Numbered from the stretch's first letter, positions 1 to 45,446 are shown. The stretch is DNA of 48,043 nucleotides from an uncultured Candidatus Saccharibacteria bacterium (GCA_964361185.1 CAYHZS010000001.1:1-48043); one strand, 5' to 3'. A program made the numbers and translations. The notes: generated by a model from the sequence alone, not told the origin.

Positions 1-1545
1 AACGGTGAGATATATAATTATAAAGAATTACGGGCAGGGCTTGAAAAAAAGGGGTATCGTTTTTCCACCGGCTCCGATACCGAGGTAATATTAAAAACAT
101 ACATAGAGTATGGCGACGAATGCCCTAAATACCTGGACGGGATGTTTTCTTTCGCCCTATGGAATGAAGAAAGCAATGAGCTGTTCGTGGCACGGGACAG
201 ATTCGGCAAGAAACCTTTCTATTATTCAATTGAAAGTGAGACTCTTATTGTTGCTTCTGAAATAAAAGCTATTTTGGCATCCGGAATAAATGGGGAAATC
301 GATTTGAGTGCTGTAGATAACTACCTCACTTTAATGTACATACCACCCTGGAAAAGCGTGTACAAAAATATACATGTCCTTCCACCCGCCCATCGGGGGG
401 TTTTCAAAAATGGGAAACTGGAGATGTCCCAATATTGGAAACTTGAGAATAAGCCGATAAATGTTTCCTATGAAGACGCCAAGGGGGAAATAAAAAGATT
501 GTTTGAAGAATCAGTTAAAAAAAGAATGGTGTCCGACGTGGAAGTCGGGGCCCTCCTTTCTGGCGGCGTCGACTCGACTCTTGTATGTACGTATGCCCAG
601 AAATACTCAAATCACCCCCTTAAAACATTTTCTGTAGGATATGAAGGTTATATAAATGAGCTCCCCTACGCCGAGGAAGCCTCCAAAAAAATAGGCACCG
701 AACATCATACCCTGCAAGCTAAAGGCAATCTTACCCACGAACTTGAAAAGGTAATTGAATACATGGACGAGCCTCATGCCGATTCGTCCAATTTCCCGCA
801 ACACCTAATATCCGAACTGGCTTCCACAAAAGTAAAAGTCGCGCTGTCCGGCGACGGAGCCGACGAACTGTTTATGGGTTACGGCTGGTATTGGAAGTAC
901 TGGAACGTTCAGAAGCACGTACAATTTATAAACGCTCTTTTCTCAAACCCCTTTAAAGAGCACCTGAAAAATCTTTCAGTCTGGAGCAAGAAAGACAGGG
1001 TGGAATTGTGGAAGGATTCATCCTTCGTAAACAATGATGTAATAGGGCAAGCTCAATCGGTAAGAAAAAATAATATAAAAAAAGTTAATCTTTTTGACCT
1101 TACGACATATCTGCCGGGGCAGCTCCTTTCAAAAATAGACCGTACTAGCATGATGCATTCTCTCGAAATACGCTCCCCTTTCCTTGATTACAAACTAGCT
1201 GAATATGTATACAATCTCCCTGAAGAATACAAGCATAATAAGAAAGAAGGGAAAATAATATTGAAAGACATCCTTTCAGAGTTCATGTCAAAGGAATTTG
1301 TTTACCGTAGAAAACAAGGGTTCGGGGCTCCGGTTCCAGCTTGGCTGAAAGACAAAAAGATGAAAAAGTACGTATGTGATAAATTAAATAGCGGGGCCAT
1401 GGTATACAATTTTTTAAAGGAGGAGAAGGTTAAATCAGTACTTGGGGAATTTTATGACAATAAAAACGAAAAAGTTCACTATAAGATATGGTCCCTTCTT
1501 TGTCTTGAGTTGTGGCTACAAAGCCATAAAAAATATCATGTTTAA
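1..1545 (+). CDS. asnB: Asparagine synthase (glutamine-hydrolysing) family amidotransferase; 5' end lies outside the window
   Basis: Frame 1 is open from base 1 (NGEIYNYKELR...GSDTEVIL, glutaminase domain) and runs into the 142..1545 ORF. PP-loop motif SGGVDS is present in LLSGGVDSTLV, followed by a long synthetase domain. TAA stop at 1543-1545. Confidence 0.85.
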   Translation, partial: NGEIYNYKELRAGLEKKGYRFSTGSDTEVILKTYIEYGDECPKYLDGMFSFALWNEESNELFVARDRFGKKPFYYSIESETLIVASEIKAILASGINGEIDLSAVDNYLTLMYIPPWKSVYKNIHVLPPAHRGVFKNGKLEMSQYWKLENKPINVSYEDAKGEIKRLFEESVKKRMVSDVEVGALLSGGVDSTLVCTYAQKYSNHPLKTFSVGYEGYINELPYAEEASKKIGTEHHTLQAKGNLTHELEKVIEYMDEPHADSSNFPQHLISELASTKVKVALSGDGADELFMGYGWYWKYWNVQKHVQFINALFSNPFKEHLKNLSVWSKKDRVELWKDSSFVNNDVIGQAQSVRKNNIKKVNLFDLTTYLPGQLLSKIDRTSMMHSLEIRSPFLDYKLAEYVYNLPEEYKHNKKEGKIILKDILSEFMSKEFVYRRKQGFGAPVPAWLKDKKMKKYVCDKLNSGAMVYNFLKEEKVKSVLGEFYDNKNEKVHYKIWSLLCLELWLQSHKKYHV

Positions 1546-2689
1546 AATCTCAAGCGCCTATCAGGCATACAGAAATAAAATAACCAACAAGCTGTTCGGC
1601 ACCGTACATATGGAGGCTCAGGGAAAGAGAAGAGGGTATGTACTGATTTCTTACATAACAGAACCTTTTACCATAGCTCCCTGGGAACCACTTTCGAATT
1701 TCCATACAAATTATTGGGAATGCTATGAAATTGCGCGACTTTTTACAGAAAAAGGTTATTCGGTAGATATAATAAACGCCAAGGATAAAAATTTCATTCC
1801 GAAAAAGCCCTATACCGCGTGTGTGGACGCAGAGAATAATTTAGAGCGCTTTTCGCCTTATCTGCCGAAAAACTGCAAGAAAATATTTCACATCTTAATC
1901 TCTCACTGGGAAGAGTATAATGAAGCTGAAAATAAAAGGCTTCAGGAGCTTAAAATAAGGCGCGGAATAGAACTTAAGCCACGAAGACGTATGGAGCCGT
2001 CCCGCAATGCAGAAATTGCCGATTATTTGGAGGGATTCGGCAATAATGCAATATTCAGAACATTCGTACGTTTCGGAAAACCGATATCATTCATACCCAT
2101 ATCAGCAGTGGTTAATTACAAGTTCTCGGAAAATAAAAACTTTACTGACGCACGTAAACATTTTCTCTGGATAGGTGGGGGTGGGTCGGTACTTAAGGGA
2201 CTGGATATTACCCTTGAAGCTTTCAGCAAAATGCCAAATTTACACTTACATGTCTGCGGTCCAGTATCGGCGGAAAAGGATTTTGCGGAAGCCTACAATA
2301 AAGAATTGTATGAAACTCCAAATATACATGTTTATGGACGCATTGATGTTGCCGGGAAGAAGTTTGGGGATATCATAGATAAGTGCGCCGCAATCGTATA
2401 TCCTTCCGCTGGAGAAGGGTCATCTGGCGCAGTTGTTCAAGCCATGCACGCCGGGCTTGTCCCGATAATCACTCATGAGACGGGAATACAGGAAGATTCC
2501 GGCTATATACCGCTTGAAAATCCGACCCCCCAATCAGTCTCCAAAGCAGTTCAAGATTTTGCCAATACTTCGCCTGAAAAAATCCGTGAGCTTTCGCATA
2601 AAATTTGGTTGTATGCGAGAAAACGTTACACTCGTGGTGAATTCAGTCGGACATATAAAAAATTTATTGAAGAAAAATTAGGATTATGA
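1538..2689 (+). CDS. Glycosyltransferase, GT-B fold (GT4-like)
   Basis: C-terminal EGSSGAVVQAMHAGLVPIITHETG resembles the GT4 donor-binding motif. Start placed at ATG 1538 (MFKISS...), overlapping the upstream stop by 8 nt; the track start at 1442 lies inside the upstream gene. Confidence 0.6.
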   Translation: MFKISSAYQAYRNKITNKLFGTVHMEAQGKRRGYVLISYITEPFTIAPWEPLSNFHTNYWECYEIARLFTEKGYSVDIINAKDKNFIPKKPYTACVDAENNLERFSPYLPKNCKKIFHILISHWEEYNEAENKRLQELKIRRGIELKPRRRMEPSRNAEIADYLEGFGNNAIFRTFVRFGKPISFIPISAVVNYKFSENKNFTDARKHFLWIGGGGSVLKGLDITLEAFSKMPNLHLHVCGPVSAEKDFAEAYNKELYETPNIHVYGRIDVAGKKFGDIIDKCAAIVYPSAGEGSSGAVVQAMHAGLVPIITHETGIQEDSGYIPLENPTPQSVSKAVQDFANTSPEKIRELSHKIWLYARKRYTRGEFSRTYKKFIEEKLGL

Positions 2690-3534
2690 AACCTCTTATA
2701 AGTGTCGTAATTCCCGTACACAATTGTGAAAATACCATTGGGGACGCTGTAGCCTCGATTCTTAATCAAACTTATCCAAATTTAGAAGTTATAATAGCCA
2801 ACGACAACAGCACTGATGGCACTAAAGATATTTTAGAACGTCTCGCGGAATCAAATCACAAATTAAAAATCGTAGACGTGCCGGACGACCCTGGCCGATT
2901 TGACCCAAAAACCAAGCGTAATATAAATGCGGGGTATTCCGCAAGAAATGAGGCTTTTAAATACACCCGTGGAGAATATATAACATTCCAGGACGCGGAC
3001 GATACCTCTTTTTTAAACCGCATAGAGGTTCAGTATGATCTTTTAACCAAATATGGATCAACCCATCTGACCATTGACTGGGTGCGATTTGACGAGAAAT
3101 ACATTGGTAAAAAACTTAATGTATCAACATTTCCAAATGATTTTAAAATGCTTTCACCAAAAGAGCTGTATAAGATGTCTCAAAGATCAAAAGGGCTGGT
3201 TGCAAAAATTTCAACTGTCGTTAATGAAGCAGTGCCATTCAGTTTAAAAAGAAAGAAGATTATCAACAAGCTTTTCTTCGGCTCTCTGGAAAATTATCCC
3301 GGGCAAGGCAATTCTCCCCTATTCAAACGGGAAGTTGCTGATAAGATAAGCTTCAGAAAATTATCGGAGCGGGTGTGGCCGTCTTTCATGGGCCGAGGAG
3401 CTGACAAGGATTTTAATTTCCAGGTCGCCGAAACTTTTAAAAACAGCCACGTATTATTTATCCCGCTTTATATGTGGCGGGTAAAAGACCAGAATGAGAG
3501 ATATCCTGATGGCATAGGCGAATTTTTAATTTAA
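2686..3534 (+). CDS. Family 2 glycosyltransferase (GT-A fold)
   Basis: ISVVIPVHNCENTIGDAVASILNQTYPNLEVIIANDNSTDGT plus FQDADD (DxD) are GT2 signatures. ATGA overlap with the upstream stop. Confidence 0.8.
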   Translation: MKPLISVVIPVHNCENTIGDAVASILNQTYPNLEVIIANDNSTDGTKDILERLAESNHKLKIVDVPDDPGRFDPKTKRNINAGYSARNEAFKYTRGEYITFQDADDTSFLNRIEVQYDLLTKYGSTHLTIDWVRFDEKYIGKKLNVSTFPNDFKMLSPKELYKMSQRSKGLVAKISTVVNEAVPFSLKRKKIINKLFFGSLENYPGQGNSPLFKREVADKISFRKLSERVWPSFMGRGADKDFNFQVAETFKNSHVLFIPLYMWRVKDQNERYPDGIGEFLI

Positions 3535-3536
3535 TC

Positions 3537-3571
3537 AAAAAAAAGCTCCTCCCCATATACTAGGGAGGAGC
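3537..3571 (-). terminator. Intrinsic terminator between convergent genes (best fit for the minus-strand radical SAM gene)
   Basis: GCTCCTCCC (3545-3553) pairs with GGGAGGAGC (3563-3571) across a 9-nt loop. On the minus strand the hairpin is followed by T8 (A8 at 3537-3544 on plus). On the plus strand there is no downstream U-tract. Confidence 0.7.
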
Positions 3572-3626: not shown

Positions 3627-5423
3627 TTACCTCCATTCGGAAAGAAGTCTGTTCAGGCCCAGTTTCTCAAAACGAACGCGCCAGAAAGCTGATTCTTCGA
3701 GGTATGTGTCCGTTTCCTCGAAATTACCCCTGGCTTCGGTGTAATTGCCCAGTTTCTTGTTCACGATGCCCAAGTAAAGGGCCGCCAAAGCAATGTGCTT
3801 CGGCAGGCGGTCGATAATGGCGCGCAAGTTAAGGCGTTGCATCGAAAGCTTCACCGGATTTTCGATTCTTGCTATGCGTTCGTAGTTGACAAGATAGTCC
3901 ATCATGAACCACACGTCCGGCATTTCTTCCCGCGAGGGAATACAATCGGAGCACGAAGGGTCAAGAACATGCGGGTTGAAAGCGCTTAGTTCTGTTTCAC
4001 GCCTTTCCTTAAGGCGCTGGCCTCCCGCCGGACCCACAAACATCTTAGAGGACAGGACCGTGTGCTCATCCGTAAGTCCCCTGTCCACCATCGTCTGCGC
4101 CATCGCGGTGCCGCCAAAGGGAGACAGGATTTGAATCGGATACCAGTCAAGCTCGATTTCCCTGGCCAAATTAATGGTATTCCAGATTTTTCCCACGGTT
4201 TCATCCGGGAACCCGACCATCAGGAACCCTTTGGCAAAAACACTTGGATACTCTTTCATCAGTTCGCCGACCCGCCGGAAATGTTTCACTCCGGAAGGCT
4301 TCTTAACCGATTTAAGAATCTCTGGGTCACCTGATTCAATGCCGAAACTAAGCCCGATACAGCCGGACTCATAAGCGGCCCGCATCACTTCTTTGGTGGT
4401 AACGGACGCTATGACTCCATTTGAGGCGTCCCATGTAATCCCCAGGTTCCTTCGGATGATTTCATTGAACATTTCCACGCAATCCGGACGGAACAGGTCG
4501 TCATCAAGCCACATGAAGTGTTTGATTCCGTAATGTTTCGCCAGGCGTTCCATCTCATCCACGACCACAACTGACTTTCTTTCGCGCACTCCGCTTCCGT
4601 TGAAACTATGCACCGAGCAGAATGTGCATTGGGCTCGGCACCCGCGATTGGCCAAAATGGTACTTACTGGCGGATTGCCTATTAGCCAGCGGTATACGCC
4701 GATTTCGCCCCACTTGCCGTTCTCGCCCAAAGGCAGGTCGTCGTAATCCGGAGAATAATTCAATTTATCTCCGTCCGGGAATATCCGACGCTCAATGTAA
4801 AGGTATTCCCCTCCGTCGATAATGCCAGTCTGGGTCAGGCGGTCTTCCGTAATTTTACCGTTCGCGAAATCGATGAAGTTTACAAATGCTTCGTCGGCTT
4901 CGTAGGCGATAACCGCGTCAATGTTCGGAATTTCTTCCAAAACCAGTCGCGTATTGTTCGAGGCGTGAACCCCGCCAACCACTATCGGCACACCGGGAAA
5001 AGACATCTTAGTGTAATCCACAACCGCCCTCAAAGAAGTGTGGGTTGCGGAAAACATACAGCTGACACCGACCAAGTCCGGCGCGAAAGACTCTACGGCG
5101 CCCTCAAGCATAGTCTGCCAGCGCTTGTAGTCAAACACCTCATCCTTCACGTGGGACAGAACCTCAAAATTGAGATCAATGAGCCTGGTCGTATAGCCGG
5201 CCACCCGCAAATCACGCGAGAGCAGGCCAAGCCCGTAAGGCGGGAAGCAGGGATATCTTTTCAATTTGGCGGTTGCCAGATCGAAATCGTCCTCGCCCAC
5301 CTGCGGGATGTTTATCAGAAGAATCCTCCCGCACCCGTTAGGAAAGAGCTTTTTAACCCTGCGGGCCACCTGTCCTTGAATTACGTCATCGGAATTCTTA
5401 ATCTTAAAAGTAGCGGTATTCAC
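3627..5423 (-). CDS. Cobalamin-binding-domain radical SAM protein (class B radical SAM, methyltransferase-like)
   Basis: N-terminal B12-binding-type region (ILLINIPQV..., PPYGLGLLS, VGVSCMFS), then a CxxxCxxC cluster motif as CRAQCTFCSV. GTG start lies 7 nt after AGGAGG (cctcct at 5431-5436 on plus). Visibly richer in G+C than the neighbouring GT2 gene. Confidence 0.8.
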   Translation of the reverse strand: MNTATFKIKNSDDVIQGQVARRVKKLFPNGCGRILLINIPQVGEDDFDLATAKLKRYPCFPPYGLGLLSRDLRVAGYTTRLIDLNFEVLSHVKDEVFDYKRWQTMLEGAVESFAPDLVGVSCMFSATHTSLRAVVDYTKMSFPGVPIVVGGVHASNNTRLVLEEIPNIDAVIAYEADEAFVNFIDFANGKITEDRLTQTGIIDGGEYLYIERRIFPDGDKLNYSPDYDDLPLGENGKWGEIGVYRWLIGNPPVSTILANRGCRAQCTFCSVHSFNGSGVRERKSVVVVDEMERLAKHYGIKHFMWLDDDLFRPDCVEMFNEIIRRNLGITWDASNGVIASVTTKEVMRAAYESGCIGLSFGIESGDPEILKSVKKPSGVKHFRRVGELMKEYPSVFAKGFLMVGFPDETVGKIWNTINLAREIELDWYPIQILSPFGGTAMAQTMVDRGLTDEHTVLSSKMFVGPAGGQRLKERRETELSAFNPHVLDPSCSDCIPSREEMPDVWFMMDYLVNYERIARIENPVKLSMQRLNLRAIIDRLPKHIALAALYLGIVNKKLGNYTEARGNFEETDTYLEESAFWRVRFEKLGLNRLLSEWR

Positions 5424-5606
5424 CGTCAGTCCTCCTAAAAATTGGTTTTAACCTCTTTGACTTTCAATGTGCGAAGCGATGCCATAGAATCGGCAATTGG
5501 GGTCTATTAACCTCCAAATATTCCGCTTTTATCTACGAGAACTATAAACTATCCGCCCAAAATAGCAAGTAAGAAACACTTTGTATCTAATGTCAATAAA
5601 AGCTTT

Positions 5607-6422
5607 TTAAAAAATAGAGTTCACGGCTCCCCCGTCTATGACTAGACACGAACCGGTTATGAATTTCCCTTTGTCTGAAGCCAAGTAAACTGCCAAATTA
5701 GCCACATCATCAAGCTCAACAACTCCGCCCAAAATAGTTTTGCTGGAGATTTCTTTCATTATTTTTTCTTCGGCCTGCTTGAATGTGCTACCTTCCCTTT
5801 TCGCCCTATCGGCTACATCTTTAACCCAGGCACCGCCTTTGACCGTGTGCGGACAAATTGCATTTACTAAAATCCCATATCTACCCCATTGATTAGAAAG
5901 ATATTTGCTCAAATGAATCATCGCGGCTTTCATCGCCCCGTAGTGAGGAATGAAATTGCCAGGCCGTTTCCCTGAGACACTTGCCATATTGATAATGCGG
6001 GCGCATTTGGACTGGCGGAGTAACGGCAATGCTTCCCGGCTGAACCTCACCATGCTCATGAGATTAATATCAAAAACCTCCTGCCAATCGGAATCGTTAA
6101 GTCCTTCAAAATTGGCGAACTTGAGCGCTCCTCCTATATTATTAACCAGAATATCCAAACGCTTAAAATCTTTTTTAATATCTGCCACCGTATCTTTTAC
6201 CTGTCCGGCATCAGTCGCGTCCGTCACGTACCCCCGGCATTTTGCTCCAGTTTTTTTAATCAAAGCAACCGCTTTGTTCAAATCTTTTTTAGATCGTCCA
6301 CAAATAGCAATAGAGGCTCCTTCTGTTGCCATGGCTACGGCTATGGCAAAACCAATACCACGGCTGCCACCGGTTATAAAAGCAACTCTTCCTTTCAGTT
6401 CTGTTCCTTTTGATTTATTCAT
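5607..6422 (-). CDS. Short-chain dehydrogenase/reductase (classical SDR, ketoreductase-like)
   Basis: TGGSRGIG cofactor motif, NNIG, catalytic YGAMKAAM (YxxxK). Confidence 0.85.
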   Translation of the reverse strand: MNKSKGTELKGRVAFITGGSRGIGFAIAVAMATEGASIAICGRSKKDLNKAVALIKKTGAKCRGYVTDATDAGQVKDTVADIKKDFKRLDILVNNIGGALKFANFEGLNDSDWQEVFDINLMSMVRFSREALPLLRQSKCARIINMASVSGKRPGNFIPHYGAMKAAMIHLSKYLSNQWGRYGILVNAICPHTVKGGAWVKDVADRAKREGSTFKQAEEKIMKEISSKTILGGVVELDDVANLAVYLASDKGKFITGSCLVIDGGAVNSIF

Positions 6423-6431
6423 AACTATATT

Positions 6432-7310
6432 TTAGTTAATGAATTTTCCAATTCTCCGCTTTATTCCGTCAGGGGTCAGTTTAAGAAATTCATCCTGTTC
6501 GCTCTCGGTGCCGTAGTTGCGCAAAAACTCCCTTGGCACTCCAATAAAAAGCGTTTCCACTTTCCGTCCCGCGACAGCCTCGGCCACATCAAGCGCCAGA
6601 GCTCCGCTGTAATACGGCTCGCAAATAACTATTTTATCCCCACAAATATTATTACGCAATGTCTCTCCATCGAAAGGATGCAGGGTCGTATAGTAAAGAA
6701 TGGTGACATCCATGTCCCGGCAAGCTTCTTTTACTCGGTCTAACATAGTTCCTGCGGCAATCACCGTGGCAATTCTGCCCTTCTTAATAACATTGGCTTT
6801 TCCAAATACGACATCCTCGCTATTACTATTGCTTTTTTCGCTAAGGCGGAAATAAGTCGGCTGTCCGTTTTTGTATGACTGTTTAAAAAGGCTGTCAAAT
6901 TCGGCCGCCGTACCCGGTAAAACTATCTCAATTTCCGGCACGTTCTTAAGTATACCGACATCAGCCGGGCAATGATGAGTCGATCCAAGCGCGGAATAAT
7001 CGTATGAAGCGCCCACGCTTACGAAATTTCCTCCCAACCGCTGGTAGCCGAAGTCATTTTTTATCTGCTCGAGAGCCCTCTCCACGATGAAAGGAGCAAT
7101 GGTATGGACGACGGGGACAAATCCCTGCATTGATAACCCGGCGGCCAATCCCACCGTTGACTGCTCCAATATGCCTATGTTATAGACCCTCTCGGGGAAT
7201 TTTGATAGAGCGTTGCGGAAACCGAACACCCCTATGTCGCCTAAAAACAAAACCAATTTGTCGTCAGTTTCCAAAAGTTCATCTATTGTGCGGACAAATT
7301 GTTTGCGCAT
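6432..7310 (-). CDS. Transketolase, C-terminal (pyrimidine-binding) subunit of a split enzyme
   Basis: LGDIGVFGF...YNIGILEQSTVGLAAGLSMQGFVPVVHTIAPF matches the transketolase/DXS pyrimidine-binding domain. The 292-aa size is typical of a split subunit. Lies 4 nt downstream of the N-terminal subunit gene. Confidence 0.8.
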   Translation of the reverse strand: MRKQFVRTIDELLETDDKLVLFLGDIGVFGFRNALSKFPERVYNIGILEQSTVGLAAGLSMQGFVPVVHTIAPFIVERALEQIKNDFGYQRLGGNFVSVGASYDYSALGSTHHCPADVGILKNVPEIEIVLPGTAAEFDSLFKQSYKNGQPTYFRLSEKSNSNSEDVVFGKANVIKKGRIATVIAAGTMLDRVKEACRDMDVTILYYTTLHPFDGETLRNNICGDKIVICEPYYSGALALDVAEAVAGRKVETLFIGVPREFLRNYGTESEQDEFLKLTPDGIKRRIGKFIN

Positions 7311-7314
7311 AAAA

Positions 7315-8076
7315 TTAATCGAGCTCGCTTAAAATTTTTTTCAACTCCTCCTCTTTGGGGGACTTGTGATGCCATTCATGGTTGTTTTCCATTACATTAG
7401 AGCCGTACCCTTTAATTGTCTCCGCAATAATGGCCTTCGGCTGGCCAGAGCTTTTTTGGGAAAGCGCTTCGTAAATTTCATCATGATTATGGCCGTTTAT
7501 GGAAGAAGTTTTCCAGCCGAAAGATTCAAATTTTTTCCTCAAGTCGCCCAAAACAAGCGCCCTGTCCCCGGAATGATTGTAGTCAATTATACAATATAGA
7601 TTATCCAATTTGTGGTGGGAAGCGAGCATTGCCGATTCCCAAATCGTCCCTTCGTTTGATTCACCGTCGCCTATTATCACGTAAACTTTGCCAGGCTCCT
7701 CTTTTATTTTCATTCCGAGCGCTAGTCCCACGGCCATGGGCATGCCGTGACCTAAAGAACCGGTCGAAGCTTCTACACCTTTAATCTTATTACGGTCAGG
7801 GTGGCCGCCGAGTGAGCTGTCAAACTTGCCGAAGCTTTCCAGCTCCTCTGTCTCAATGAATCCCTTTTCCGCAAGAACAGCGTAAAGTCCGAGAGAAGCA
7901 TGCCCTTTGCTCAGAATAAGCCTGTCCCGGTCGGGGTCATCCGCTTTTTCCGGGGTAATGTTAAGAACGCGATCATACAGCACCCAGAGCAAATCAAGAA
8001 TGGAAAAAGCGCTGGGTATATGGCCTTCACCCGCCCGAGCCGCGATTTCTATGATTTTTTTCCTTAAATACTTCAT
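7315..8076 (-). CDS. Transketolase, N-terminal (thiamine-diphosphate-binding) subunit of a split enzyme
   Basis: GHIPSAFSILDLL, SKGHASLGLYA, GSLGHGMPMAVG and IGDGESNEG motifs of the ThDP-binding module. Confidence 0.85.
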   Translation of the reverse strand: MKYLRKKIIEIAARAGEGHIPSAFSILDLLWVLYDRVLNITPEKADDPDRDRLILSKGHASLGLYAVLAEKGFIETEELESFGKFDSSLGGHPDRNKIKGVEASTGSLGHGMPMAVGLALGMKIKEEPGKVYVIIGDGESNEGTIWESAMLASHHKLDNLYCIIDYNHSGDRALVLGDLRKKFESFGWKTSSINGHNHDEIYEALSQKSSGQPKAIIAETIKGYGSNVMENNHEWHHKSPKEEELKKILSELD

Positions 8077-14471: not shown

Positions 14472-15838
14472 GTTTTTTTAAAGAAAACAAGGTTCCGCTC
14501 GTTCTGCTCGCCGCAATCTCTCTGATTTTCACCGGTTTTTTGATTTTTACTTTTACTGTTGTGCAACCCGGAACTTTTCTTTCAACACTAAGCGCGGAAA
14601 ATATGGACCCCTCTGTTTCCCCAAATGAGAAAGCGGAGAATTGGAAACCAATACCGCTTGCAAGCAACTTCTTGTCGTTTTTCGCCAATGGGGTGTCATT
14701 ACCAATGATTGCCCCAAACATCGTAAAACTTTTGGCTCATCCGGCTCTTTATGACAAAGCAAAATCATTCTGGCCTGCCATGGAAATAATCATCATCGTC
14801 TTAAATATAGCGCTATTCTGGTTCGCTTTCAGACATTCTTCGGGTAAAGAAAAAATTCTCCTTGTACTACTAATACTTCTAATGTCAGTTACGATATCCG
14901 AGGTAATAATCGCGAGACCAAACCACAATATAATTCCTGATTTTGATTTCAGGTACGCCGGAGCGCCGTTTTATTTTTACAGCTTGATAATGGTCGTCTT
15001 CGCTTCAATCCTGACGAAGATAAAAAGCGAGGGTGTTTCCAAGACTATAATTTCAATTGTTATTGTTATCTTCGCCGCCCAACAGGCTTTCAGTTTTCAG
15101 GCGGTCCGCATGAAGGAAGAATCCGCGTTGAGAGAAAAGTCCGTCGTGCTCCTAGACCGAAACTTGCTCTCCGAACTTGATGTTTTAAGCAAAGGAGATT
15201 TCCCTCTGGTAATGCCGAATCTTTCCGGTTCACATATATTTGAGCCTATGCCGGGTTTTGCGCTTGCCGATTATCTCCTCTTTTTTGATAATAAGTCGCC
15301 GATAAAGCTCATCCGAAACAGCTATATGCCTCCCGATTTAAAAACCCGCTCTGTCGCTACCGTGAAAAGCCTTCGATTGGAAACAAGTTCTAAATTCAAA
15401 GAGGCTCTCAAAAAATCACCGATAATAAAATCATATTACGCTTCTCCATCGTTGATGACTTATGAAGCCTCTAATTCATCGAGTAGATACGCAAATCCGG
15501 CCGTGCCCGGCGCAAACGGAAAAAACGTCATAAGACAGGGCGAATTCGACCCTGAAAAAATAAATATCATCTGGTTTTCGCTTTACACCGACGATATTCC
15601 AGGAAATTTGGAACTTTTCTTTTCTTTCAAAAACGACTTCGGCGTAGAGGGACCAATGGGAAGAATAAGAGTAGACGACTATACTCCGCTTGTTTCAAGA
15701 GACGGGCGCCGCCTCTATTACATAGAAACCAATCTTCTTCAGCTCTATACATTCTCCCTTTCCGAAAAAATATCAGACCTTACTCTCCACATACCTAAAA
15801 CAAAAAACGCTTCCTTGGAAAAAGTTTACTTTAGGTAG
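14468..15838 (+). CDS. Membrane protein with N-terminal transmembrane bundle and about 230-aa C-terminal soluble domain, unknown function
   Basis: ATGA overlap with the upstream membrane-protein gene. Hydrophobic segments run through about residue 215, followed by a hydrophilic domain. No motif recognised. Confidence 0.5.
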   Translation: MSFFKENKVPLVLLAAISLIFTGFLIFTFTVVQPGTFLSTLSAENMDPSVSPNEKAENWKPIPLASNFLSFFANGVSLPMIAPNIVKLLAHPALYDKAKSFWPAMEIIIIVLNIALFWFAFRHSSGKEKILLVLLILLMSVTISEVIIARPNHNIIPDFDFRYAGAPFYFYSLIMVVFASILTKIKSEGVSKTIISIVIVIFAAQQAFSFQAVRMKEESALREKSVVLLDRNLLSELDVLSKGDFPLVMPNLSGSHIFEPMPGFALADYLLFFDNKSPIKLIRNSYMPPDLKTRSVATVKSLRLETSSKFKEALKKSPIIKSYYASPSLMTYEASNSSSRYANPAVPGANGKNVIRQGEFDPEKINIIWFSLYTDDIPGNLELFFSFKNDFGVEGPMGRIRVDDYTPLVSRDGRRLYYIETNLLQLYTFSLSEKISDLTLHIPKTKNASLEKVYFR

Positions 15839-17495
15839 ATTTCTTCAGAACCAGCAGAATTGAAACTCCGAAGGGAAAACTGACATACTTGAGCATCTTT
15901 CTCTCCGCGCCAAAAATGAAGGAAAAAACTTTATCTAGAGTTGGGCTATTGATATCAAAATCCGATTCTCTTCCTTTTATGCCGAGTATTCTGCTAAATA
16001 TACGGAGAAGAGCAATCGGTGGGAAAAGGAACGTGTTGAAGTACGACGAACGCAATACGGAAAGAGGAGACGAGTCCCTTATTTTTTTCAAAAGATTATT
16101 TTTAGTATACCGGCGGTAATGATGGGCCACTTCGTCCTGCACGCCCCAAAGGAACATATAGGCCGGAACCATGATAATGGCAATACCTCCAGGCTTTAGT
16201 ACTCGCTCTATTTCAGCCAAAGCCCATTTTTCGTCCTCTAGATGCTCCAATACGTCAAGGGTAAAGACCGCATCGAAAGTATTTTCAGGAAAATGAATTT
16301 TGTGCGCGTCTATCACTCCTAGGTTTTTCACCCCCTGAAGCTTGCCGAACTTAATGGCCTCTTCGGAAATATCCAGACCATGCGCGTCAAACCCGAGCTT
16401 TTGAAGCTCGTCCACGAAAATACCTGAGCCACAGCCGAAATCCAGCACTTTGGTTTCCTCGGGTTTTTTGTGGAGATAAGAATGGAGATTGTCTTTAACA
16501 ATCACACGCCTGCCTACCATGAGCCAGTGTTCTTTCTCTATCTTAAAATAATTTTTATAAAAGCTTCTTTCCATTCCTGATGTGTTTAAATCCCATAAAT
16601 TCCAGTTAAATCTTTCTATGTATTCCCTAAGGCACACCTTCCAATCGCGCGTAAGATGCGGGGCAAGTTTCCTTAATCCGATATTTATAAGTTTTTCCGA
16701 ACGCGGACGCTTAGCGAAGTAGTTTTCGGAGAAAAAGCTGGAATCAACTTCCTTTACTTTGACCTGATTTTTAAGGCCAAAACATTCCAAAAGATATCTG
16801 GCGATGTCGGCACGACTACCTCCACCGTCACACGCCCCATGATACAAACCGTAAGCACCATGGTCAAGAAGATATTTCATAGACTGGGCCAAATCATACG
16901 TGTGGCAAGGCGTGCCGAACTTATCGTTAACCACGGCGATTTCCTTGGCGCCGGCTCGAAGCTGTTTGATTATTTTATTTATGAATTTTTTGTCTTTTTT
17001 AGGCCCCGCCCCCATCATCCATCCAGCGCGTATGACTATTGATTTGGGCAAAGTCCTCGCCACCAGTTCCCCGCCGTATTTTGACTTGCCATAAACACTT
17101 AAGGGATTGGGCATATCGCTTTCGTCGTATTCGTCCTTACCACCGTCAAATATTCCTGCCGTGGAAATGTAGACCAGTGGTATATTGTGGTCTCTCGCGT
17201 ACTCCGCGACGTTTTGCACACCACCCGTGTTTGTGGAATAGGCATCATCAGGATGAAGCTCACAATATTCCATATCTGTGAGCGCCGCGAGATGAATTAT
17301 GTAATTTGGTTTTACCTTAGCGAGATAACCCGCGACATCTTTGGAAACTCTGACATCAAGCCTTTCAAGCCACGGCACGTTCAAATCAATATCTGAAGCG
17401 CGCACTTGGCACACATCCTTAAACGCCTCATAAACGGCTTCCCCGAGCATCCCGCCACAGCCGGTTATGACAACTCTGTCGCTTTTATGTAGCAT
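15831..17495 (-). CDS. Fusion protein: RmlD-like (dTDP-4-dehydrorhamnose reductase family) SDR + class I SAM methyltransferase
   Basis: N-terminal VVITGCGGMLG Rossmann motif and YGKSKYGGE (YxxxK) in an RmlD-substrate-binding-like ~300 aa. C-terminal VLDFGCGSGIFVDEL...GLDISEEAI...VLKPGG methyltransferase motifs and a hydrophobic tail. One uninterrupted 554-codon frame. Confidence 0.75.
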   Translation of the reverse strand: MLHKSDRVVITGCGGMLGEAVYEAFKDVCQVRASDIDLNVPWLERLDVRVSKDVAGYLAKVKPNYIIHLAALTDMEYCELHPDDAYSTNTGGVQNVAEYARDHNIPLVYISTAGIFDGGKDEYDESDMPNPLSVYGKSKYGGELVARTLPKSIVIRAGWMMGAGPKKDKKFINKIIKQLRAGAKEIAVVNDKFGTPCHTYDLAQSMKYLLDHGAYGLYHGACDGGGSRADIARYLLECFGLKNQVKVKEVDSSFFSENYFAKRPRSEKLINIGLRKLAPHLTRDWKVCLREYIERFNWNLWDLNTSGMERSFYKNYFKIEKEHWLMVGRRVIVKDNLHSYLHKKPEETKVLDFGCGSGIFVDELQKLGFDAHGLDISEEAIKFGKLQGVKNLGVIDAHKIHFPENTFDAVFTLDVLEHLEDEKWALAEIERVLKPGGIAIIMVPAYMFLWGVQDEVAHHYRRYTKNNLLKKIRDSSPLSVLRSSYFNTFLFPPIALLRIFSRILGIKGRESDFDINSPTLDKVFSFIFGAERKMLKYVSFPFGVSILLVLKKST

Positions 17496-18374: not shown

Positions 18375-18902
18375 TTACTCGAGGTTATAGTAGGCCTTGA
18401 TATGTTCCTCATGACCCCGGGCAAAATTTCTCGGCTCCTTGCTTCCGGCAAACCACTGGAGCTCGATGGTCTCAATGACTGGATAAACGACCCGGCAAAG
18501 GAAGTAATGATGGACCAGATGGCCGTTATTGTCCCACCCGTAGGGGTGCGTTATGTCTTCGCGCCAGCCGATTATCCCGCCTTGTCCGACACTTTTCACT
18601 ACCTCTATTTCAATCCCGAGATCAGCGGCATGACGCCTGCAGGCTTCATACATACTTTCACCGGCGAAAACGAATCCGCCTATGGTGTGCCAAGCATTCC
18701 AGGTTCCTCCACGGTAATGGAGCAAAAGTTTGCCGCCGAACGGCGCCTCTGTTTTGTCCGCAATGATAAGTTCCACCACCGTATGCGGACAGAGAGCCAC
18801 ATACCCCGAAAACGCTTCAGGCGCTACAGGCTTCCCTCGCCCTGGAAGAGTCCTTCTTACCCAGATGAATAATCTCTGAATCAAAATCCAGATTATTTTC
18901 AT
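18375..18902 (-). CDS. Nudix-fold protein with degenerate Nudix box
   Basis: GGFVFAGESMYEACRRHAADLGIEIEV aligns with GX5EX7REUXEEXGU, but the REx2EE glutamates are replaced (RH..AD). Hydrophobic N-terminus. Hand-counted G+C is about 54% over two 60-nt blocks. Confidence 0.45.
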   Translation of the reverse strand: MKIIWILIQRLFIWVRRTLPGRGKPVAPEAFSGYVALCPHTVVELIIADKTEAPFGGKLLLHYRGGTWNAWHTIGGFVFAGESMYEACRRHAADLGIEIEVVKSVGQGGIIGWREDITHPYGWDNNGHLVHHYFLCRVVYPVIETIELQWFAGSKEPRNFARGHEEHIKAYYNLE

Positions 18903-19956: not shown

Positions 19957-20481
19957 TTAAAAACGTTCTGTCACAAAACCTTCTTCGTTGACCTTCCCGT
20001 GTACCTTCGCCGGATTGCCGTATGCAAGGGCAAAGTCCGGAATACTTTCGGTAACAATCGAACCGGCGCCGACTAAGGCGAATCTTCCGATTTCCACATT
20101 CGGCAGAATAATGCTTCCAGTTCCTATTGATGCGCCGTAATGTATTATAACTGAACCGACATCCCAATCATCCGCTGATTTTAGCTTGCCGTCCGGATTG
20201 ATGGCCCGCGGATTTTTATCGTTTGTCACCACCACATGCGGGCCGATAAATACCCCGTCTTCAATAATCGCTTTATGATAAATGGAGCAGTTGTTTTGTA
20301 TCTTACAGTTATTGCCGATATCGATTCCAAAATCTATATACACATTTTTGCCGATAATGCAGTTTGATCCTATGTTTACGTTTTCACGTATCTGAACATA
20401 ATTCCATATTTTCGTATCTGCTCCGATAACAGCCTTCTCACTTACTTCCGCGGTTTTGTGTACAAAGAATTTTTTTTCCAT
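19957..20481 (-). CDS. Left-handed beta-helix (hexapeptide) sugar N-acetyltransferase, WbpD/WlbB-like
   Basis: Hexapeptide repeats (IGADTKIW, IGSNCIIGKNVYI, IGNNCKIQNNCSIY, GVFIGPHVVVTND, GAGSIVT). Layout and length match WbpD-type 3-amino-sugar acetyltransferases. Lies 1 nt from the adjacent genes on both sides. Confidence 0.75.
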   Translation of the reverse strand: MEKKFFVHKTAEVSEKAVIGADTKIWNYVQIRENVNIGSNCIIGKNVYIDFGIDIGNNCKIQNNCSIYHKAIIEDGVFIGPHVVVTNDKNPRAINPDGKLKSADDWDVGSVIIHYGASIGTGSIILPNVEIGRFALVGAGSIVTESIPDFALAYGNPAKVHGKVNEEGFVTERF

Positions 20482-20482
20482 A

Positions 20483-21424
20483 TCAGATTACAATTTTAAG
20501 GGCCTCGATTGAATCGCTGACATTATTTATTTCCCAGTTTTTCACACCTGATAAGAAATGAACCAACTCCTCTTTCAGGGGTTCTTTTTTTGACACATAA
20601 ACTTCCTTCTCTGTAGCTTTGCTTGAAATAGACACGAATTCATAAAATGAGCCGTCAAACTTTGTATTAAGAATCTTGTCGCGCAATATAAGCTTTTGCC
20701 GGATATAATCGATTTCTGCGTATCCATCGGTTCCACTGACAAACAGCTTCCTCATTTTTACCGGAGTTATCCAATTCGTCTGTATAACTCCCGTTATTTT
20801 ACCGTATTCAAGAATCATCGTGGAGGAATCGGCGGTGTTTTTTGAAAAAAGCTTTGTCCTAAGAACTCTTTTTTTATCGGGTACCCTTCCAAGCAGATAA
20901 TTGAATACGTCCACATCGTGAATGCCCAGGTCTAAAGCGACATCAGATGCCTGCTTAGGAGGCGCAATCCCAACGCGGATGGCAAGAAGGCTTATAATTT
21001 CGCCCATTCTCCCCTCAGATATTATTTTTTTGAGCTTAACAATCGCCGGATTGAATCTTTCAACATGCCCCACCATAAGAAGCACGCGGTTTTTTTTGGC
21101 GCATTTGAGCATTTCCCGCGCCTGTTTGGTATTTTCCGCTATCGGCTTTTCAATAAGCGTCGGGATTTTTTTGTTCAAACAGTCAAAAACTATTTTCTTA
21201 TGGAGATGAGTTGGAACAACCACCGAGACGGCATCGAGCTGTTCTGCCCCAATCATTTGACTGTAATCTTTGTAAAAACGGGCTCCGTACTTATCGGCAA
21301 CCTCTTTTCCTAATGTTTCATTAGTGTCCGAGACGGCAACCAAATCCGCAATCTTTGAGAAAATTCTTGCGTGATTTTTGCCCATATTGCCGACACCAAT
21401 AACTCCCACTTTATTCTTTTTCAT
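20483..21424 (-). CDS. Gfo/Idh/MocA family oxidoreductase, WbpB-like
   Basis: KVGVIGVGNMGKNHARIF Rossmann N-terminus and EKP motif (LIEKPIA). Sits between a DegT aminotransferase gene and a hexapeptide acetyltransferase gene. Confidence 0.75.
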   Translation of the reverse strand: MKKNKVGVIGVGNMGKNHARIFSKIADLVAVSDTNETLGKEVADKYGARFYKDYSQMIGAEQLDAVSVVVPTHLHKKIVFDCLNKKIPTLIEKPIAENTKQAREMLKCAKKNRVLLMVGHVERFNPAIVKLKKIISEGRMGEIISLLAIRVGIAPPKQASDVALDLGIHDVDVFNYLLGRVPDKKRVLRTKLFSKNTADSSTMILEYGKITGVIQTNWITPVKMRKLFVSGTDGYAEIDYIRQKLILRDKILNTKFDGSFYEFVSISSKATEKEVYVSKKEPLKEELVHFLSGVKNWEINNVSDSIEALKIVI

Positions 21425-22527
21425 TTCGCAGCTTTTTTTATTAGGCTAACCATAAGATCAATCTCTGAATTCTTAAGGAATGGATGAACCGGCAAAGAAA
21501 GAACCTGATTGGAAAGCGTTTCGGCGACCGGATACATTCCTTTTTTGTACGGAGTAATTTTTTTTATGTGCGGCTGCATTGGAATAACTGACGGATAGTA
21601 GACGGCTGATCGTACTCCATTTTCAAGTAGGTATTTGATGAGCTCCGCTCTCTTTATCGGAAAATCACCGGTTATACGCACGGTAAACTGATGATAAGCA
21701 TGAGCTGTCCCGTCGGTAGATTCGGGCAGAACAAGACCTGGTATATTTTTTAGTTTAGTTACCAATCTGCGCGCATTTTGATTTCTTTTTTCCGTCCATT
21801 GCTTTAAGTTACCTATTTGAGCAAGTCCTATTGAGGCCAACACGTCAGTCGAGCGGTAATTGTATCCAATATGATGGTATATATACGGCTTCTCCTGATC
21901 TTGCCCGTGCTGTCTGAATCTCCTGGCAAATTCATAAATTTCATTATTGTCGGTAACCAAAGCTCCTCCCTCTCCCATCATGATATTTTTCGTCGCGTAA
22001 AAAGAAAAGCAAGCAACATCAACCCACTTGGCTATAGGCTTTTTCATATAAGAAGCCCCGATCGCCTGGCATGAATCGCTGATAACTTTCAGGTTGTGCT
22101 TTCTGGCTATTCTTCTTATCTTTTCGTAATCGCACGAGAGGCCGTACAAATCAACTGTCAGAATAGCCTTGGTTTTTTTGGATATCTTGGCCTCGATAAG
22201 GTCAGGATCTATATTGAAAGTGCCTTCTTTTATGTCGACAAAAACCGGTTTTGCGTTGCACATAAGAATCGTATTTGCCGTAGCGATAAAAGAAAACGGT
22301 GTGGTTATAACCTCATCCCCTTTTTTTAGGCCCAGGGATGCCAATGCGGTATGCAATGCCGCTGTTCCGGAATTAACCACGGCGGCATATTTTGTACGAT
22401 TAATATCGCAAAGTTGCCTTTCAAGCTCCTTGACTCTTTCCCCTTGCGCCAGGAATCCCGAGAGCAAGACTTTTTTTACCTCGTCTTCGGTTTTTTTATC
22501 TATGAAAATTTTAGTGATATTTATCAT
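21421..22527 (-). CDS. DegT/DnrJ/EryC1/StrS family PLP-dependent sugar aminotransferase, WbpE-like
   Basis: Typical family length and blocks (NSGTAALHTAL, ITTPFSF, DSCQAIGA, SFYATKNI with the PLP lysine). The start could be 22527 (MINITK...) or 22557. ATGA overlap with the downstream gene. Confidence 0.8.
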   Translation of the reverse strand: MINITKIFIDKKTEDEVKKVLLSGFLAQGERVKELERQLCDINRTKYAAVVNSGTAALHTALASLGLKKGDEVITTPFSFIATANTILMCNAKPVFVDIKEGTFNIDPDLIEAKISKKTKAILTVDLYGLSCDYEKIRRIARKHNLKVISDSCQAIGASYMKKPIAKWVDVACFSFYATKNIMMGEGGALVTDNNEIYEFARRFRQHGQDQEKPYIYHHIGYNYRSTDVLASIGLAQIGNLKQWTEKRNQNARRLVTKLKNIPGLVLPESTDGTAHAYHQFTVRITGDFPIKRAELIKYLLENGVRSAVYYPSVIPMQPHIKKITPYKKGMYPVAETLSNQVLSLPVHPFLKNSEIDLMVSLIKKAAK

Positions 22528-22683
22528 CTTTTGATTTTTAGCGCAATACCCCTTCATCGGCCATATTCATTCTTAAGCCGAGTAGGCTGGCGTTGATTAT
22601 CCTCTTTCGTACCACATTCTACAACCATTCGCAAGGAAACCGCATTTGCTTAAAGAACTGCCGGGCTTTATCAGGAAAGACTA

Positions 22684-33338: not shown

Positions 33339-34614
33339 TTTTTTTGATTACTCCGGGTATAAGGAAAAAAACGGCTCCCGTTATGAATTTAGCGGTAAAT
33401 CGTATCCAGGCATAAAAAATTCCGGCGGCCAAACGGGAAATTCCTGTTTTTTTCGGCAGAAGCCATTCGCTTGAAAGAGGGCTGCACTCAATAACCGCCG
33501 CGGCTAAAAAAAGCTTCTTTTGAAAAATCCCTTTCGGGTGAGAAAATCGGGTAAACGCGTCTAGAGCACCCGCAAAAAACCTGTTGCGGATAATCCACCC
33601 GCTCACGTGATGATCCCCCAGTTTATGTTTGATGATTAATTTCTCGTAAATATCGGGGTAATACGGACCGACGGGAGCGCCTGAGAGTATGTAGCTCATA
33701 AGCGCCCGCGACTCCGAGAAAGGCTCTTCTTTTTGCCGCCTCAATTCTTTTAAGCCAGCCGAAAGCGTGCGGGGATGAAAATCATATTCGCGCGAAAAAT
33801 TTTCCGGGAGCACGGGAGCATCCTGGTGCATGGCCAAAACATTACTCATTGTAAGTGGCGGTTTTTTAAAAAATAATTTCAGTAGCCTGGCCAAACCACG
33901 GCCCAGAAAAATCGGTATGTGGACTAAAGTAACCCTCCTGCCATTGACTTCGCCGGCTACCCTCTGCACCAATTTATTGAAAGAGATTTCATCGGGTCCG
34001 CCTAAATCATAGGTTACATTCCCATGGAAAGGACGGGAAATAGTTTTTCGAATGGCCAGGGCTACGTCCTCTACGTGAATAGGACGTGAAATGAACGCAC
34101 CAGGACCAAAAACCGGGACAATGGGGAGTCTGGTAGATCCGATAAGCGTCCCGAAAATACCGCTTTTAAGGTCCCCATATACGATACTTGATTTCAGGGT
34201 AATGACCGGAATACCTCCAGAATTAAATATCTCATCCGCTTTATTTTTGGTTTCCGCGTACAATCCCTTGTTTGGAAGCTTCGTGGAAACAGTGCTTACA
34301 TTTATCAATCCCAGAACCCCGTTCGCCAGGCACGCCTCCAAAAGATTTCTTGCTCCCGTGACGTTTATTTCATGGCTTTCTTCTTCGTCCGACTTTGCCG
34401 CCGCCAGATGAATTACGATACCAACTCCATCCGTTCCCTTAAGTAATGTTTCTCTATTCCGCATGTCCCCCAAACACCACTGGAGATTTTCATGATAAAA
34501 AGAAATCCTATTCGCCCCGCGGACAAAAGCGATTACTTCATGGCCTTTCTCCAGAAGTTCTCTAATTACGGCTGTCCCGATAAATCCTCCTGCTCCAGTT
34601 ACAAAGATTTTCAT
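33331..34614 (-). CDS. NAD-dependent epimerase/dehydratase-type SDR with about 120-aa hydrophobic C-terminal extension
   Basis: MKIFVTGAGGFIGTAVIRELLEKGHEV, YAETKNKAD (YxxxK). The C-terminal part contains hydrophobic segments (LFLAAAVIECSPL, FITGAVFFLIPGVI). Overlaps the GMC gene start by 8 nt. Confidence 0.7.
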   Translation of the reverse strand: MKIFVTGAGGFIGTAVIRELLEKGHEVIAFVRGANRISFYHENLQWCLGDMRNRETLLKGTDGVGIVIHLAAAKSDEEESHEINVTGARNLLEACLANGVLGLINVSTVSTKLPNKGLYAETKNKADEIFNSGGIPVITLKSSIVYGDLKSGIFGTLIGSTRLPIVPVFGPGAFISRPIHVEDVALAIRKTISRPFHGNVTYDLGGPDEISFNKLVQRVAGEVNGRRVTLVHIPIFLGRGLARLLKLFFKKPPLTMSNVLAMHQDAPVLPENFSREYDFHPRTLSAGLKELRRQKEEPFSESRALMSYILSGAPVGPYYPDIYEKLIIKHKLGDHHVSGWIIRNRFFAGALDAFTRFSHPKGIFQKKLFLAAAVIECSPLSSEWLLPKKTGISRLAAGIFYAWIRFTAKFITGAVFFLIPGVIKKNA

Positions 34615-43487: not shown

Positions 43488-43496
43488 ACGTATGGA

Positions 43497-45290: not shown

Positions 45291-45446
45291 TTGGGATTTG
45301 GAAGTTTATAAATTCAAAGCTGGGTTTCCCAACGCCTAATTTCCAATATCTAATATCTATTCTCAAAGTATAGTATGGAAACGCGGAACAAAAAAGTCTA
45401 TCTCATTGTCGCGAAAAATTACCCAAATAAATGATACTATGTGATT

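Follow-up and report, generated by a model that had tools for sequence, protein, structure and literature searches.

The 48,043-nt stretch of DNA from an uncultured Candidatus Saccharibacteria bacterium (GCA_964361185.1 CAYHZS010000001.1:1-48043) analyzed here, called the window below, carries a cassette of four open reading frames (ORFs) placed head-to-tail on the minus strand; gene coordinates are counted from its first letter. The four ORFs encode the two subunits of a split transketolase (TktN and TktC), a classical short-chain dehydrogenase/reductase (SDR), and a radical S-adenosylmethionine (SAM) enzyme with a B12-binding domain. A preliminary description of this DNA had proposed this layout, with distances of 4 nt between tktN and tktC, 9 nt between tktC and the SDR gene, and 183 nt between the SDR gene and the radical SAM gene. 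The ORFs and their Pfam matches bore out the layout and the spacings, with the gene coordinates unchanged (Table 1). The start proposed for the radical SAM gene, AGGAGG followed by a 7-nt spacer and a GTG at 5423, and the strong hairpin-T8 terminator proposed for the end of the unit were likewise found. The terminator hairpin (3571-3545, minus strand) has a stem GCTCCTCCC...GGGAGGAGC of 11 bp (7 G-C), a 5-nt loop and a T8 tail, and sits in the 92-nt space common to the radical SAM gene and a convergent glycosyltransferase gene, GT2.

The order TktN-TktC-classical SDR-radical SAM was found in the window and at three independent loci (L001, L010, and L011/L089/L095). The four-gene arrangement is beyond chance. 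The radical SAM protein of the window was 65% identical to that of L001, also from Saccharibacteria, 61% identical to that of L010, and 49-51% identical, depending on the aligner, to that of L011/L089, where all four cassette genes are on one strand. The SDR had orthologs of 64-70% identity at the same position in L001, L010 and L011. One further locus, L177, starts with the same cassette up to the end of its contig, and a fragment of the radical SAM gene, 100% identical to the window's, was present in a Patescibacteria metagenome-assembled genome (L007). The isolate name, H43-bin011_1, is similar to 'Hain-H43', a sample name of related metagenome contigs, and the bacterium is probably from groundwater. 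Past the SDR gene, L001, L010 and L177 have an RfaE-domain-II-like nucleotidyltransferase gene on the opposite strand. In L001 and L010 it is followed by a NUDIX gene (NudE-like in L001), so that the SDR and radical SAM genes enclose the two. The window has neither this nucleotidyltransferase nor a counterpart of the cassette-side NUDIX gene.

The SDR has the motifs of a classical SDR intact: the cofactor-binding TGGSRGIG, NNIG at the NNAG position, and the catalytic S...YGAMK (Ser-Tyr-Lys). None of the NCBIfam models matched it at cutoff. No terminator-like site was seen in the 183-nt spacer downstream of its gene, and one transcript across this gap is possible from the sequence. A riboswitch or structured leader in the gap was ruled out, because an Rfam search of the spacer gave no match and its folding energy was close to that of shuffled sequence (z = -0.18).

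Table 1. The cassette and adjoining features of the window
Feature	Position	Strand	Evidence
TktN, 253 aa, N-terminal subunit (binds the diphosphate of thiamine diphosphate) of a split enzyme of non-canonical transketolase type	7315..8076	-	Pfam Transketolase_N, 148 bits
TktC, pyrimidine-binding/C-terminal subunit, 292 aa	6432..7310	-	Pfam Transket_pyr, 77 bits, and weak Transketolase_C
Classical SDR, predicted ketoreductase, 271 aa	5607..6422	-	Pfam adh_short, 174 bits; adh_short_C2, 195 bits
183-nt spacer between SDR and radical SAM genes, holding the ribosome-binding site	5424..5606	-	AGGAGG at 5436-5431
Radical SAM enzyme with B12-binding domain, 598 aa, uncharacterized family	3627..5423	-	Pfam B12-binding, 63.8 bits, and Radical_SAM, 62 bits
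Intrinsic terminator ending the unit	3537..3571	-	Hairpin and T8
Convergent AsnB-like amidotransferase (truncated by the window start), GT1 and GT2	1..3534	+	Pfam

The split transketolase and its subfamily

Among solved structures, TktN matched best the split transketolase of C. hydrogenoformans (Carboxydothermus; PDB 6yak, 223 bits). TktC is far more diverged: it matched the split transketolase PDB 6yaj with 91 bits, its next match was DXS, and no full-length canonical transketolase matched it at E <= 1e-5. Both subunits missed the NCBIfam transketolase cutoff of 488 bits (TktN 252 bits, TktC 74 bits). The pair has the split-gene architecture, with the N domain and the Pyr and C domains in separate adjacent genes.

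The pair was aligned with E. coli TktA, whose numbering is used here. The residues for binding thiamine diphosphate (ThDP) and metal and for catalysis are retained: His26, His66, His100, Asp155, Asn185 and His261 in TktN, and Glu411 and His473 in TktC. Thirteen subfamily or related pairs retain the same set. None of the four residues for binding the substrate phosphate is left, Arg358 being absent and Ser385, His461 and Arg520 being replaced by Phe, Gly and Glu, respectively. Asp469, which binds the 2-hydroxyl of the acceptor, is Leu in the window's TktC. Loss of the phosphate site and of Asp469 was seen in every subfamily member examined, with a similar pattern in alphaproteobacterial relatives, whereas the housekeeping split transketolase 6yaj retains Ser, His, Asp and Arg at the corresponding sites. 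With the ThDP and catalytic residues kept and the phosphate site lost, the two-carbon carbanion of transketolases could still be formed, but a sugar phosphate could not be held in the usual way. Judged by these residues, the pair is a specialized and not a housekeeping enzyme, in line with the reading of the preliminary description. Protein engineers introduce similar changes, at the phosphate site and at Asp469, to broaden the substrate range of transketolase.

The TktC subfamily comprises more than 120 sequence clusters at 60-76% identity, and the few with a named source are from Patescibacteria. It occupies at least 448 loci in metagenomes, and we surveyed the partner genes at 80 TktC-anchored metagenome loci (L094-L173). 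About 65 of the 80 had TktN-TktC followed by a 343-aa extended SDR, whose nearest solved relative is the human UDP-glucuronate decarboxylase UXS1 (111 bits; motifs STSEVYsG and YIEGKR). A zinc-dependent alcohol dehydrogenase was the partner at 2 of the 80; L090 and L091 additionally have an RfaE-like kinase. The classical SDR was the partner at only one (L095, the same locus as L089/L011), and this locus alone has a radical SAM gene. More generally, the variant with a classical SDR has a radical SAM gene wherever the contig is long enough, while the variant with an extended SDR never has one within about 2.6 kb of TktC. Locus L176 shares the convergent GT2-GT1-AsnB flank with the window, and its TktC has 73% identity to that of the window, but an extended SDR takes the place of the radical SAM gene together with the classical SDR. 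In a neighbor-joining tree of TktC, the sequences linked to a radical SAM gene fell in one sub-clade, interleaved with the extended-SDR and zinc-dependent alcohol dehydrogenase variants. The form TktN-TktC-UXS-like SDR is thus the dominant one of the subfamily in Patescibacteria glycan loci (L094-L173, L092, L176), and this three-gene module appears to be undescribed.

The partner genes bear on the acceptor. In eurekanate biosynthesis, ThDP-dependent branching is proposed to act on a UDP-4-keto-pentose supplied by a UDP-glucuronate decarboxylase (PMC10338323), and the usual partner SDR of the window's transketolase subfamily is of the same class. Since this UXS-like class releases UDP-4-keto-pentose, a nucleotide 4-keto sugar is the most plausible acceptor for the subfamily, and transfer of a two-carbon (C2) unit to a nucleotide-linked keto sugar would be its reaction, as the glycan locus, the UXS-like or other reductase partner and the lost phosphate site suggest. 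UDP-glucose dehydrogenase genes were found near the transketolase module in L001, L011/L089 and L176.

The pair can be compared with several known systems. For the split-gene transketolases of miharamycin and amipurimycin, transfer of hydroxyacetyl onto a keto sugar is proposed but unproven; 13 putative sequences are listed, all from Streptomycetes and none characterized in vitro (PMC12247030). As far as a comparison by description only allows, these enzymes are like the window's pair in being two-subunit transketolase-type ThDP enzymes inside a sugar pathway, not central metabolism. They belong to nucleoside-antibiotic clusters, whereas the window's pair lies in a Patescibacteria surface-glycan locus and is coupled to a B12-type radical SAM gene. 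In paulomycose biosynthesis, C-4 of a nucleotide 4-keto sugar receives a C2 unit from the E1-like pair Pau11/Pau12, and the ketoreductase Pau7 then gives a hydroxyethyl branch (PMC4753412). Pau11/Pau12 with Pau7, and also AviB1/AviB2, share with the window cassette, as we read it, the sequence of a two-subunit ThDP-dependent C2 addition and a ketoreduction. However, AviB1/AviB2 and Pau11/Pau12 are of the E1_dh type and use pyruvate for acetyl transfer, whereas the window's pair is of the transketolase type and keeps the His residues for the C1-hydroxyl of the donor. Pau7 is an aldo-keto reductase and not an SDR, and no radical SAM step is known in the eurekanate and paulomycose pathways. YerE, in an O-antigen pathway, transfers a C2 unit to a CDP-4-keto-3,6-dideoxy sugar to give yersiniose A (PMC12247030). 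It is a single-chain ThDP enzyme with the acetolactate-synthase (ALS) fold; the window encodes none, but a YerE/ALS-like enzyme replaces the transketolase in L003, as described below.

The radical SAM family and its ThDP partners

The radical SAM enzyme has the CxxxCxxC motif of its superfamily (C262-C266-C269), which was invariant in 40 sequences. An N-terminal Rossmann-type B12 domain (PF02310, 63.8 bits against a cutoff of 32.1) carries an invariant Gly150-Gly151 pair, and a helical C-terminal domain (approximately 464-598) has conserved Trp505, Asn513, Trp581 and Arg584. None of the NCBIfam models (HpnJ, PhpK, BchE, ApyD, Sden_1168, AprD4, HpnR, KedN5 and others) matched at cutoff; the best was HpnJ (96 bits, cutoff 578), and AprD4 gave 50 bits (cutoff 500). 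The AlphaFold model had a mean predicted local distance difference test (pLDDT) score of 90, and its nearest folds were TsrM, MgmA, AprD4, OxsB, TokK and CysS (template modeling scores 0.5-0.6, 14-18% identity).

In domain order, the B12-binding domain and then the CxxxCxxC core, and in predicted fold, the enzyme matches the class B radical SAM methyltransferases TsrM, TokK, CysS and MgmA/QCMT, but it is only 14-18% identical to the solved members and reaches no curated family model. With the family profile, the closest sequences were MgmA, a methylase (81 bits), and AprD4, a dehydratase (64 bits), each aligned via the radical SAM core only, while the methylases TsrM, TokK and CysS aligned via the cobalamin domain. 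Other class B methyltransferases include GenK and GenD1, which act on sugars, and Fom3, which acts on a cytidylylated alcohol. C-methylation, with predicted use of cobalamin, is the favored radical step, because the B12 domain is recognizable and because many relatives already have a separate dehydrogenase to make the ketone.

The family had 367 relatives among species-representative genomes, with hosts including Patescibacteria, DPANN archaea, SAR11, Nitrospira, 'Ca. Brocadia', Elusimicrobia and Planctomycetes. Members were seen, for example, at SAR11 loci L047, L055, L068, L070 and L074 and at loci from DPANN and other archaea (L031, L040, L043, L046, L052). Cultivable carriers are Magnetospirillum sp. 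UT-4, Jiella sp. LLJ827 and 'Ca. Pelagibacter' HIMB1412.

The preliminary description had called for a survey of the four genes' co-occurrence, and co-occurrence with ThDP enzymes was surveyed across the family. At 73 non-redundant radical SAM loci, ThDP enzymes acting on carbon-carbon bonds were counted within 10 kb, some loci having more than one type. Such a ThDP carboligase was present at 48 of the 73: a split transketolase-like enzyme at 12 (11 as adjacent N/C pairs), an E1 alpha/beta-like enzyme at 37, and a YerE/ALS-like enzyme at 5. The ThDP pair was often on the same strand and ended 10-115 nt upstream of the radical SAM gene, which Pfam confirmed in L048 and L178. As a control, the 80 TktC-anchored glycan loci (840 kb) gave one E1-like match (1/80) and no ALS-like match. 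The ThDP architecture is swapped while the radical SAM family stays constant, which argues that both act in the same pathway. A dedicated extended SDR of the nucleotide-sugar dehydrogenase/epimerase type was present at 20 of the 73 loci and a GHMP kinase at 26.

The anammox locus L178 shows one such set in full. An extended SDR directly upstream of the E1 pair matched PDB 6vo6 (382 bits), presumably the GDP-heptose C4 dehydrogenase Cj1427 of C. jejuni. Where such a dedicated keto-forming SDR is present, the ketone would be made by an enzyme other than the radical SAM protein, which would then do something further. The function of Cj1427 is documented (PMC10680097). The gene order in L178 is extended SDR, E1 alpha, E1 beta, radical SAM (598 aa), DJ-1, epimerase, GD_AH-family dehydratase, HAD hydrolase, a second B12-radical SAM gene (490 aa), GHMP kinase, nucleotidyltransferase, DegT aminotransferase, and a glycosyltransferase-methyltransferase fusion. 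L178 has no E2 or E3 gene, and its E1-like pair therefore does not belong to a 2-oxoacid dehydrogenase complex. This gene set looks like a flagellin glycosylation island, and the logic that recurs would be sugar activation, C4 oxidation, C2 addition by a ThDP enzyme, and then one or two radical SAM steps. In L178 (1-21797, 'Ca. Brocadia'), these genes lie directly downstream of the flagellar genes FlgI, FlgK, flagellin, FliW and CsrA.

Several other loci of the family had features of their own. In L048 (3452-11764, Elusimicrobia), a split transketolase-like pair and an E1 alpha/beta-like pair are both co-directional upstream of the radical SAM gene, and three more radical SAM genes are present. 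Beside radical SAM homologs of 39-42% identity (L038, L039, L044, L045, L053 and others), a PhyH-family dioxygenase gene was very often immediately adjacent; it lay within 3 kb of the radical SAM gene in 18 of 21 PhyH-bearing loci. A HemN-like radical SAM gene was also common (20 loci).

The closest orthologs, at least 49% identical to the window's protein, came from 8 distinct loci. The TktN-TktC-SDR trio was present at 4 of these, and the AsnB-GT1-GT2 trio adjoined the radical SAM gene at 5; 2 loci had both trios and one had neither. In L003, beside a 61%-identical ortholog, a YerE/ALS-like ThDP enzyme stands in place of the transketolase. A fragment of a UXS-like SDR, of the type that partners the transketolase, closes L008, which is one locus with L086; this fragment is 10 kb from the radical SAM gene.

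With 51.5% G+C and 61.1% G+C at third codon positions (GC3), the radical SAM gene ranks highest among the 42 genes of the window (mean 42.9%, standard deviation 3.6). The preliminary description was right that this gene is richer in G+C; its value of about 43% for tktN was wrong, the measured one being 46.5%. It had also proposed a separate evolutionary history for the gene. The gene was also raised in G+C in each of the five further loci that were checked, and divergence from locus to locus is congruent among the four cassette proteins. Because raised G+C is a property of this gene elsewhere too and the divergence is congruent, a separate recent history in this genome is not indicated, and recent horizontal gain of the radical SAM gene alone was rejected. 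A NUDIX-domain gene at 18375-18902 (minus strand) is the second most G+C-rich gene of the window (51.3%, GC3 56%). The two top G+C values in L001 likewise belong to the radical SAM gene and a NUDIX gene, though a different one. The window's NUDIX gene was rejected as a counterpart of the NudE-like gene beside the L001 cassette, since the two have no detectable similarity.

A candidate pathway and its alternatives

We propose the following order of reactions from active-site residues and gene context. TktN and TktC would form a ThDP enzyme that has retained the two-carbon carbanion of transketolases and no longer binds sugar phosphates. The enzyme may transfer a C2 unit of the hydroxyacetyl or glycolaldehyde type to the carbonyl of a nucleotide sugar, most likely a 4-keto sugar, giving a C-branched or chain-extended sugar. 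The classical SDR would then reduce the new side-chain ketone with NAD(P)H. In the least certain step, the B12-domain radical SAM enzyme may modify an unactivated carbon of the same sugar, most likely by methylation, and the product would be passed to the neighboring glycosyltransferases. We give an even chance to the view that the four genes act in one shared pathway, making a C2-branched or C2-extended, further-modified sugar in a surface-glycan locus. A broader proposition, held somewhat more tentatively, is that three interchangeable ThDP architectures, together with a dedicated B12-domain radical SAM family, form a widespread and undescribed family of pathways. These pathways would make C-branched or chain-extended sugars with further C-alkylation or deoxygenation, destined for flagellar or surface glycans of bacteria of the candidate phyla radiation (CPR), DPANN archaea, SAR11, Nitrospira, anammox bacteria and others, and their transketolase member would be the first for which a nucleotide keto sugar acceptor is shown.

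Several observations weigh against a single shared pathway. The idea, which the preliminary description had put forward, has strong comparative support, the cassette being present at half of the 8 closest loci, but the other half had no transketolase within 8-10 kb, and about 75 of the 80 transketolase-subfamily loci had no radical SAM gene. Three of the radical SAM loci (L086, L087, L088) had no ThDP enzyme of any kind within 8-10 kb. The radical SAM gene is thus not dependent on the transketolase. Beside the window cassette there is no nucleotidyltransferase, UDP-glucose dehydrogenase or keto-sugar-forming SDR; without keto-sugar-making genes there, the acceptor has no evident local source. 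The 183-nt spacer holds one weak promoter-like match (5568-5541, 9 of 12 positions), which permits independent transcription of the radical SAM gene. Among solved structures, AprD4 (43 bits with the single sequence), a non-methylating, cobalamin-free dehydratase, is the second-best relative of the radical SAM protein by sequence. Finally, members of the family occur in SAR11, CPR bacteria and DPANN archaea, groups that are not known to make B12. These small-genome carriers either scavenge cobalamin or have a domain that does not bind it. As AprD4 illustrates, a B12-like domain need not bind cobalamin.

The last two points would also fit a shared pathway with a different radical step, a reading we regard as rather unlikely. 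On it, the radical SAM protein would act like AprD4, as a radical diol dehydratase, or as another kind of non-methylating radical enzyme, with the SDR as an AprD3-like reductase, so that the sugar is deoxygenated; alternatively, the radical enzyme would make a deoxy-keto acceptor for the transketolase. AprD4, also a top fold match, is a radical SAM diol dehydratase that acts with the NADPH-dependent reductase AprD3 in the C3' deoxygenation of paromamine (PMC5461906). As in the window, a radical SAM enzyme with a B12-like N-terminal domain and a reductase are together there, and the substrate is a sugar (PMC5461906). Homologs of the window's SDR (213-241 bits) stand beside distant radical SAM homologs without a split transketolase in L039, L044, L045 and L053, and in L054 and L072 the gene directly upstream of the radical SAM gene encodes an RmlD-like 4-ketoreductase. 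The extended SDR of L176, which fills the slot of SDR and radical SAM gene between the transketolase pair and the GT2-GT1-AsnB flank, could be read in the same way. However, the likeness of AprD4 to the window's enzyme is only in the radical SAM core, while the N-terminal domain aligns with the cobalamin-binding methylases; the Pfam B12-binding match is over threshold and the AprD4 model falls a long way below its cutoff. In addition, many loci already have a dedicated extended SDR directly upstream of the ThDP enzyme, and a ketone-forming radical enzyme would be redundant there.

An unlikely reading is that the cassette consists of independent modules. The radical SAM gene would serve the convergent AsnB-GT1-GT2 block or the glycan in general, for example by C-methylation of a uronamide, and its transketolase-SDR neighborhood would reflect the mosaic build of the locus. 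In moenomycin biosynthesis, MoeK5 has reportedly been proposed to C-methylate a uronamide residue with the amidotransferase MoeF5. The frequency of the AsnB trio next to the closest radical SAM genes (in L003 all on one strand, 71 nt apart), the lack of the transketolase trio at half of these loci, the position of the L086 radical SAM gene alone beside Wzm/Wzt and DegT genes, and the gene's own ribosome-binding site, 183-nt leader and possible promoter are all consistent with such modules. But L010 and L011 have the transketolase trio and no AsnB trio, and L176 has the AsnB trio and the transketolase module and no radical SAM gene, so the AsnB trio accompanies the transketolase as readily as it does the radical SAM gene. 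The association with ThDP enzymes at 48 of 73 loci, against 1 of 80 in the control, is hard to explain through mosaicism, and the classical-SDR variant of the transketolase is always linked to a radical SAM gene. A very improbable account is that the pair is an ordinary split transketolase of the pentose phosphate pathway, or a source of sedoheptulose 7-phosphate for heptose, merely located in a glycan locus. It could explain the strong resemblance of TktN to the housekeeping enzyme, and some related loci do have RfaE-like kinase and nucleotidyltransferase genes and GT9 heptosyltransferase genes beside the pair. The subfamily-wide replacements at the phosphate site and Asp469, retained in the housekeeping split enzyme, and the lack of any canonical full-length match to TktC within E <= 1e-5 argue against it. 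The pair also lies within a glycan locus in the window and in 5 of 5 Pfam-annotated subfamily loci, and adjoins a reductase in most of the 80 surveyed loci. A housekeeping role was therefore ruled out by the active-site residues, and a supply of ADP- or GDP-heptose via sedoheptulose 7-phosphate is incompatible with the lost phosphate site; the window, moreover, has no RfaE-like or GT9 genes.

In the literature searched, no characterized pathway was found that combines a split transketolase, a ketoreductase and a B12-type radical SAM enzyme, in agreement with the preliminary description. For characterized transketolase-type or B12-radical SAM enzymes in O-antigen, capsule or CPR glycans, the searches gave only unannotated mentions, as in the Actinoplanes wps-2 cluster. 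If the shared pathway is real, it would be a new class of transketolase reaction, on a nucleotide keto sugar and without a sugar-phosphate acceptor; a nucleotide keto sugar has so far only been proposed as transketolase acceptor, for two Streptomyces antibiotics (PMC12247030). The sugar context and the partner enzyme would also give the first lead on the substrate of a large uncharacterized radical SAM family. Undescribed branched higher sugars would then be expected on ultra-small uncultured bacteria and archaea and on abundant marine and nitrogen-cycle bacteria, which would matter for the recognition between episymbionts and hosts and for phage receptors. Recombinant enzymes and cultivable carriers allow a direct test of the hypothesis.

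Other genes of the glycan locus

The window is otherwise one very large glycan locus, with many GT1, GT2 and GT11 genes, four FkbM-type methyltransferase genes and a gene for a GtrA-like protein. The convergent AsnB-GT1-GT2 genes are likely users of the cassette's product, or a separate module, and the conservation of this trio suggests a glycan containing uronamide.

At 19957-22557 (minus strand), genes for a GFO/IDH/MocA oxidoreductase, a DegT aminotransferase and a hexapeptide acetyltransferase stand in a row, in the WbpB/WbpE/WbpD-type pattern of 3-acetamido sugars. This row could be a source of keto sugar in the locus. An ORF at 15831-17495 (minus strand) encodes a 554-aa protein with an RmlD-like 4-ketoreductase domain fused to a class I SAM methyltransferase domain. 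At 31749-34614 (minus strand), the gene of a 529-aa protein with weak FAD/GMC-oxidoreductase matches overlaps by 8 nt with that of a protein of 427 aa that has an HpnA/PseB-like extended SDR as its N-terminal half; the two may form a module for sugar oxidation. Genes at 42015-46980 (minus strand), at the far end of the locus, encode a secreted-type protein that has lamin-tail and PKD domains, a coupling ATPase of 597 aa like TraG/VirD4, and a putative glycosyl hydrolase of the DUF4015 type.

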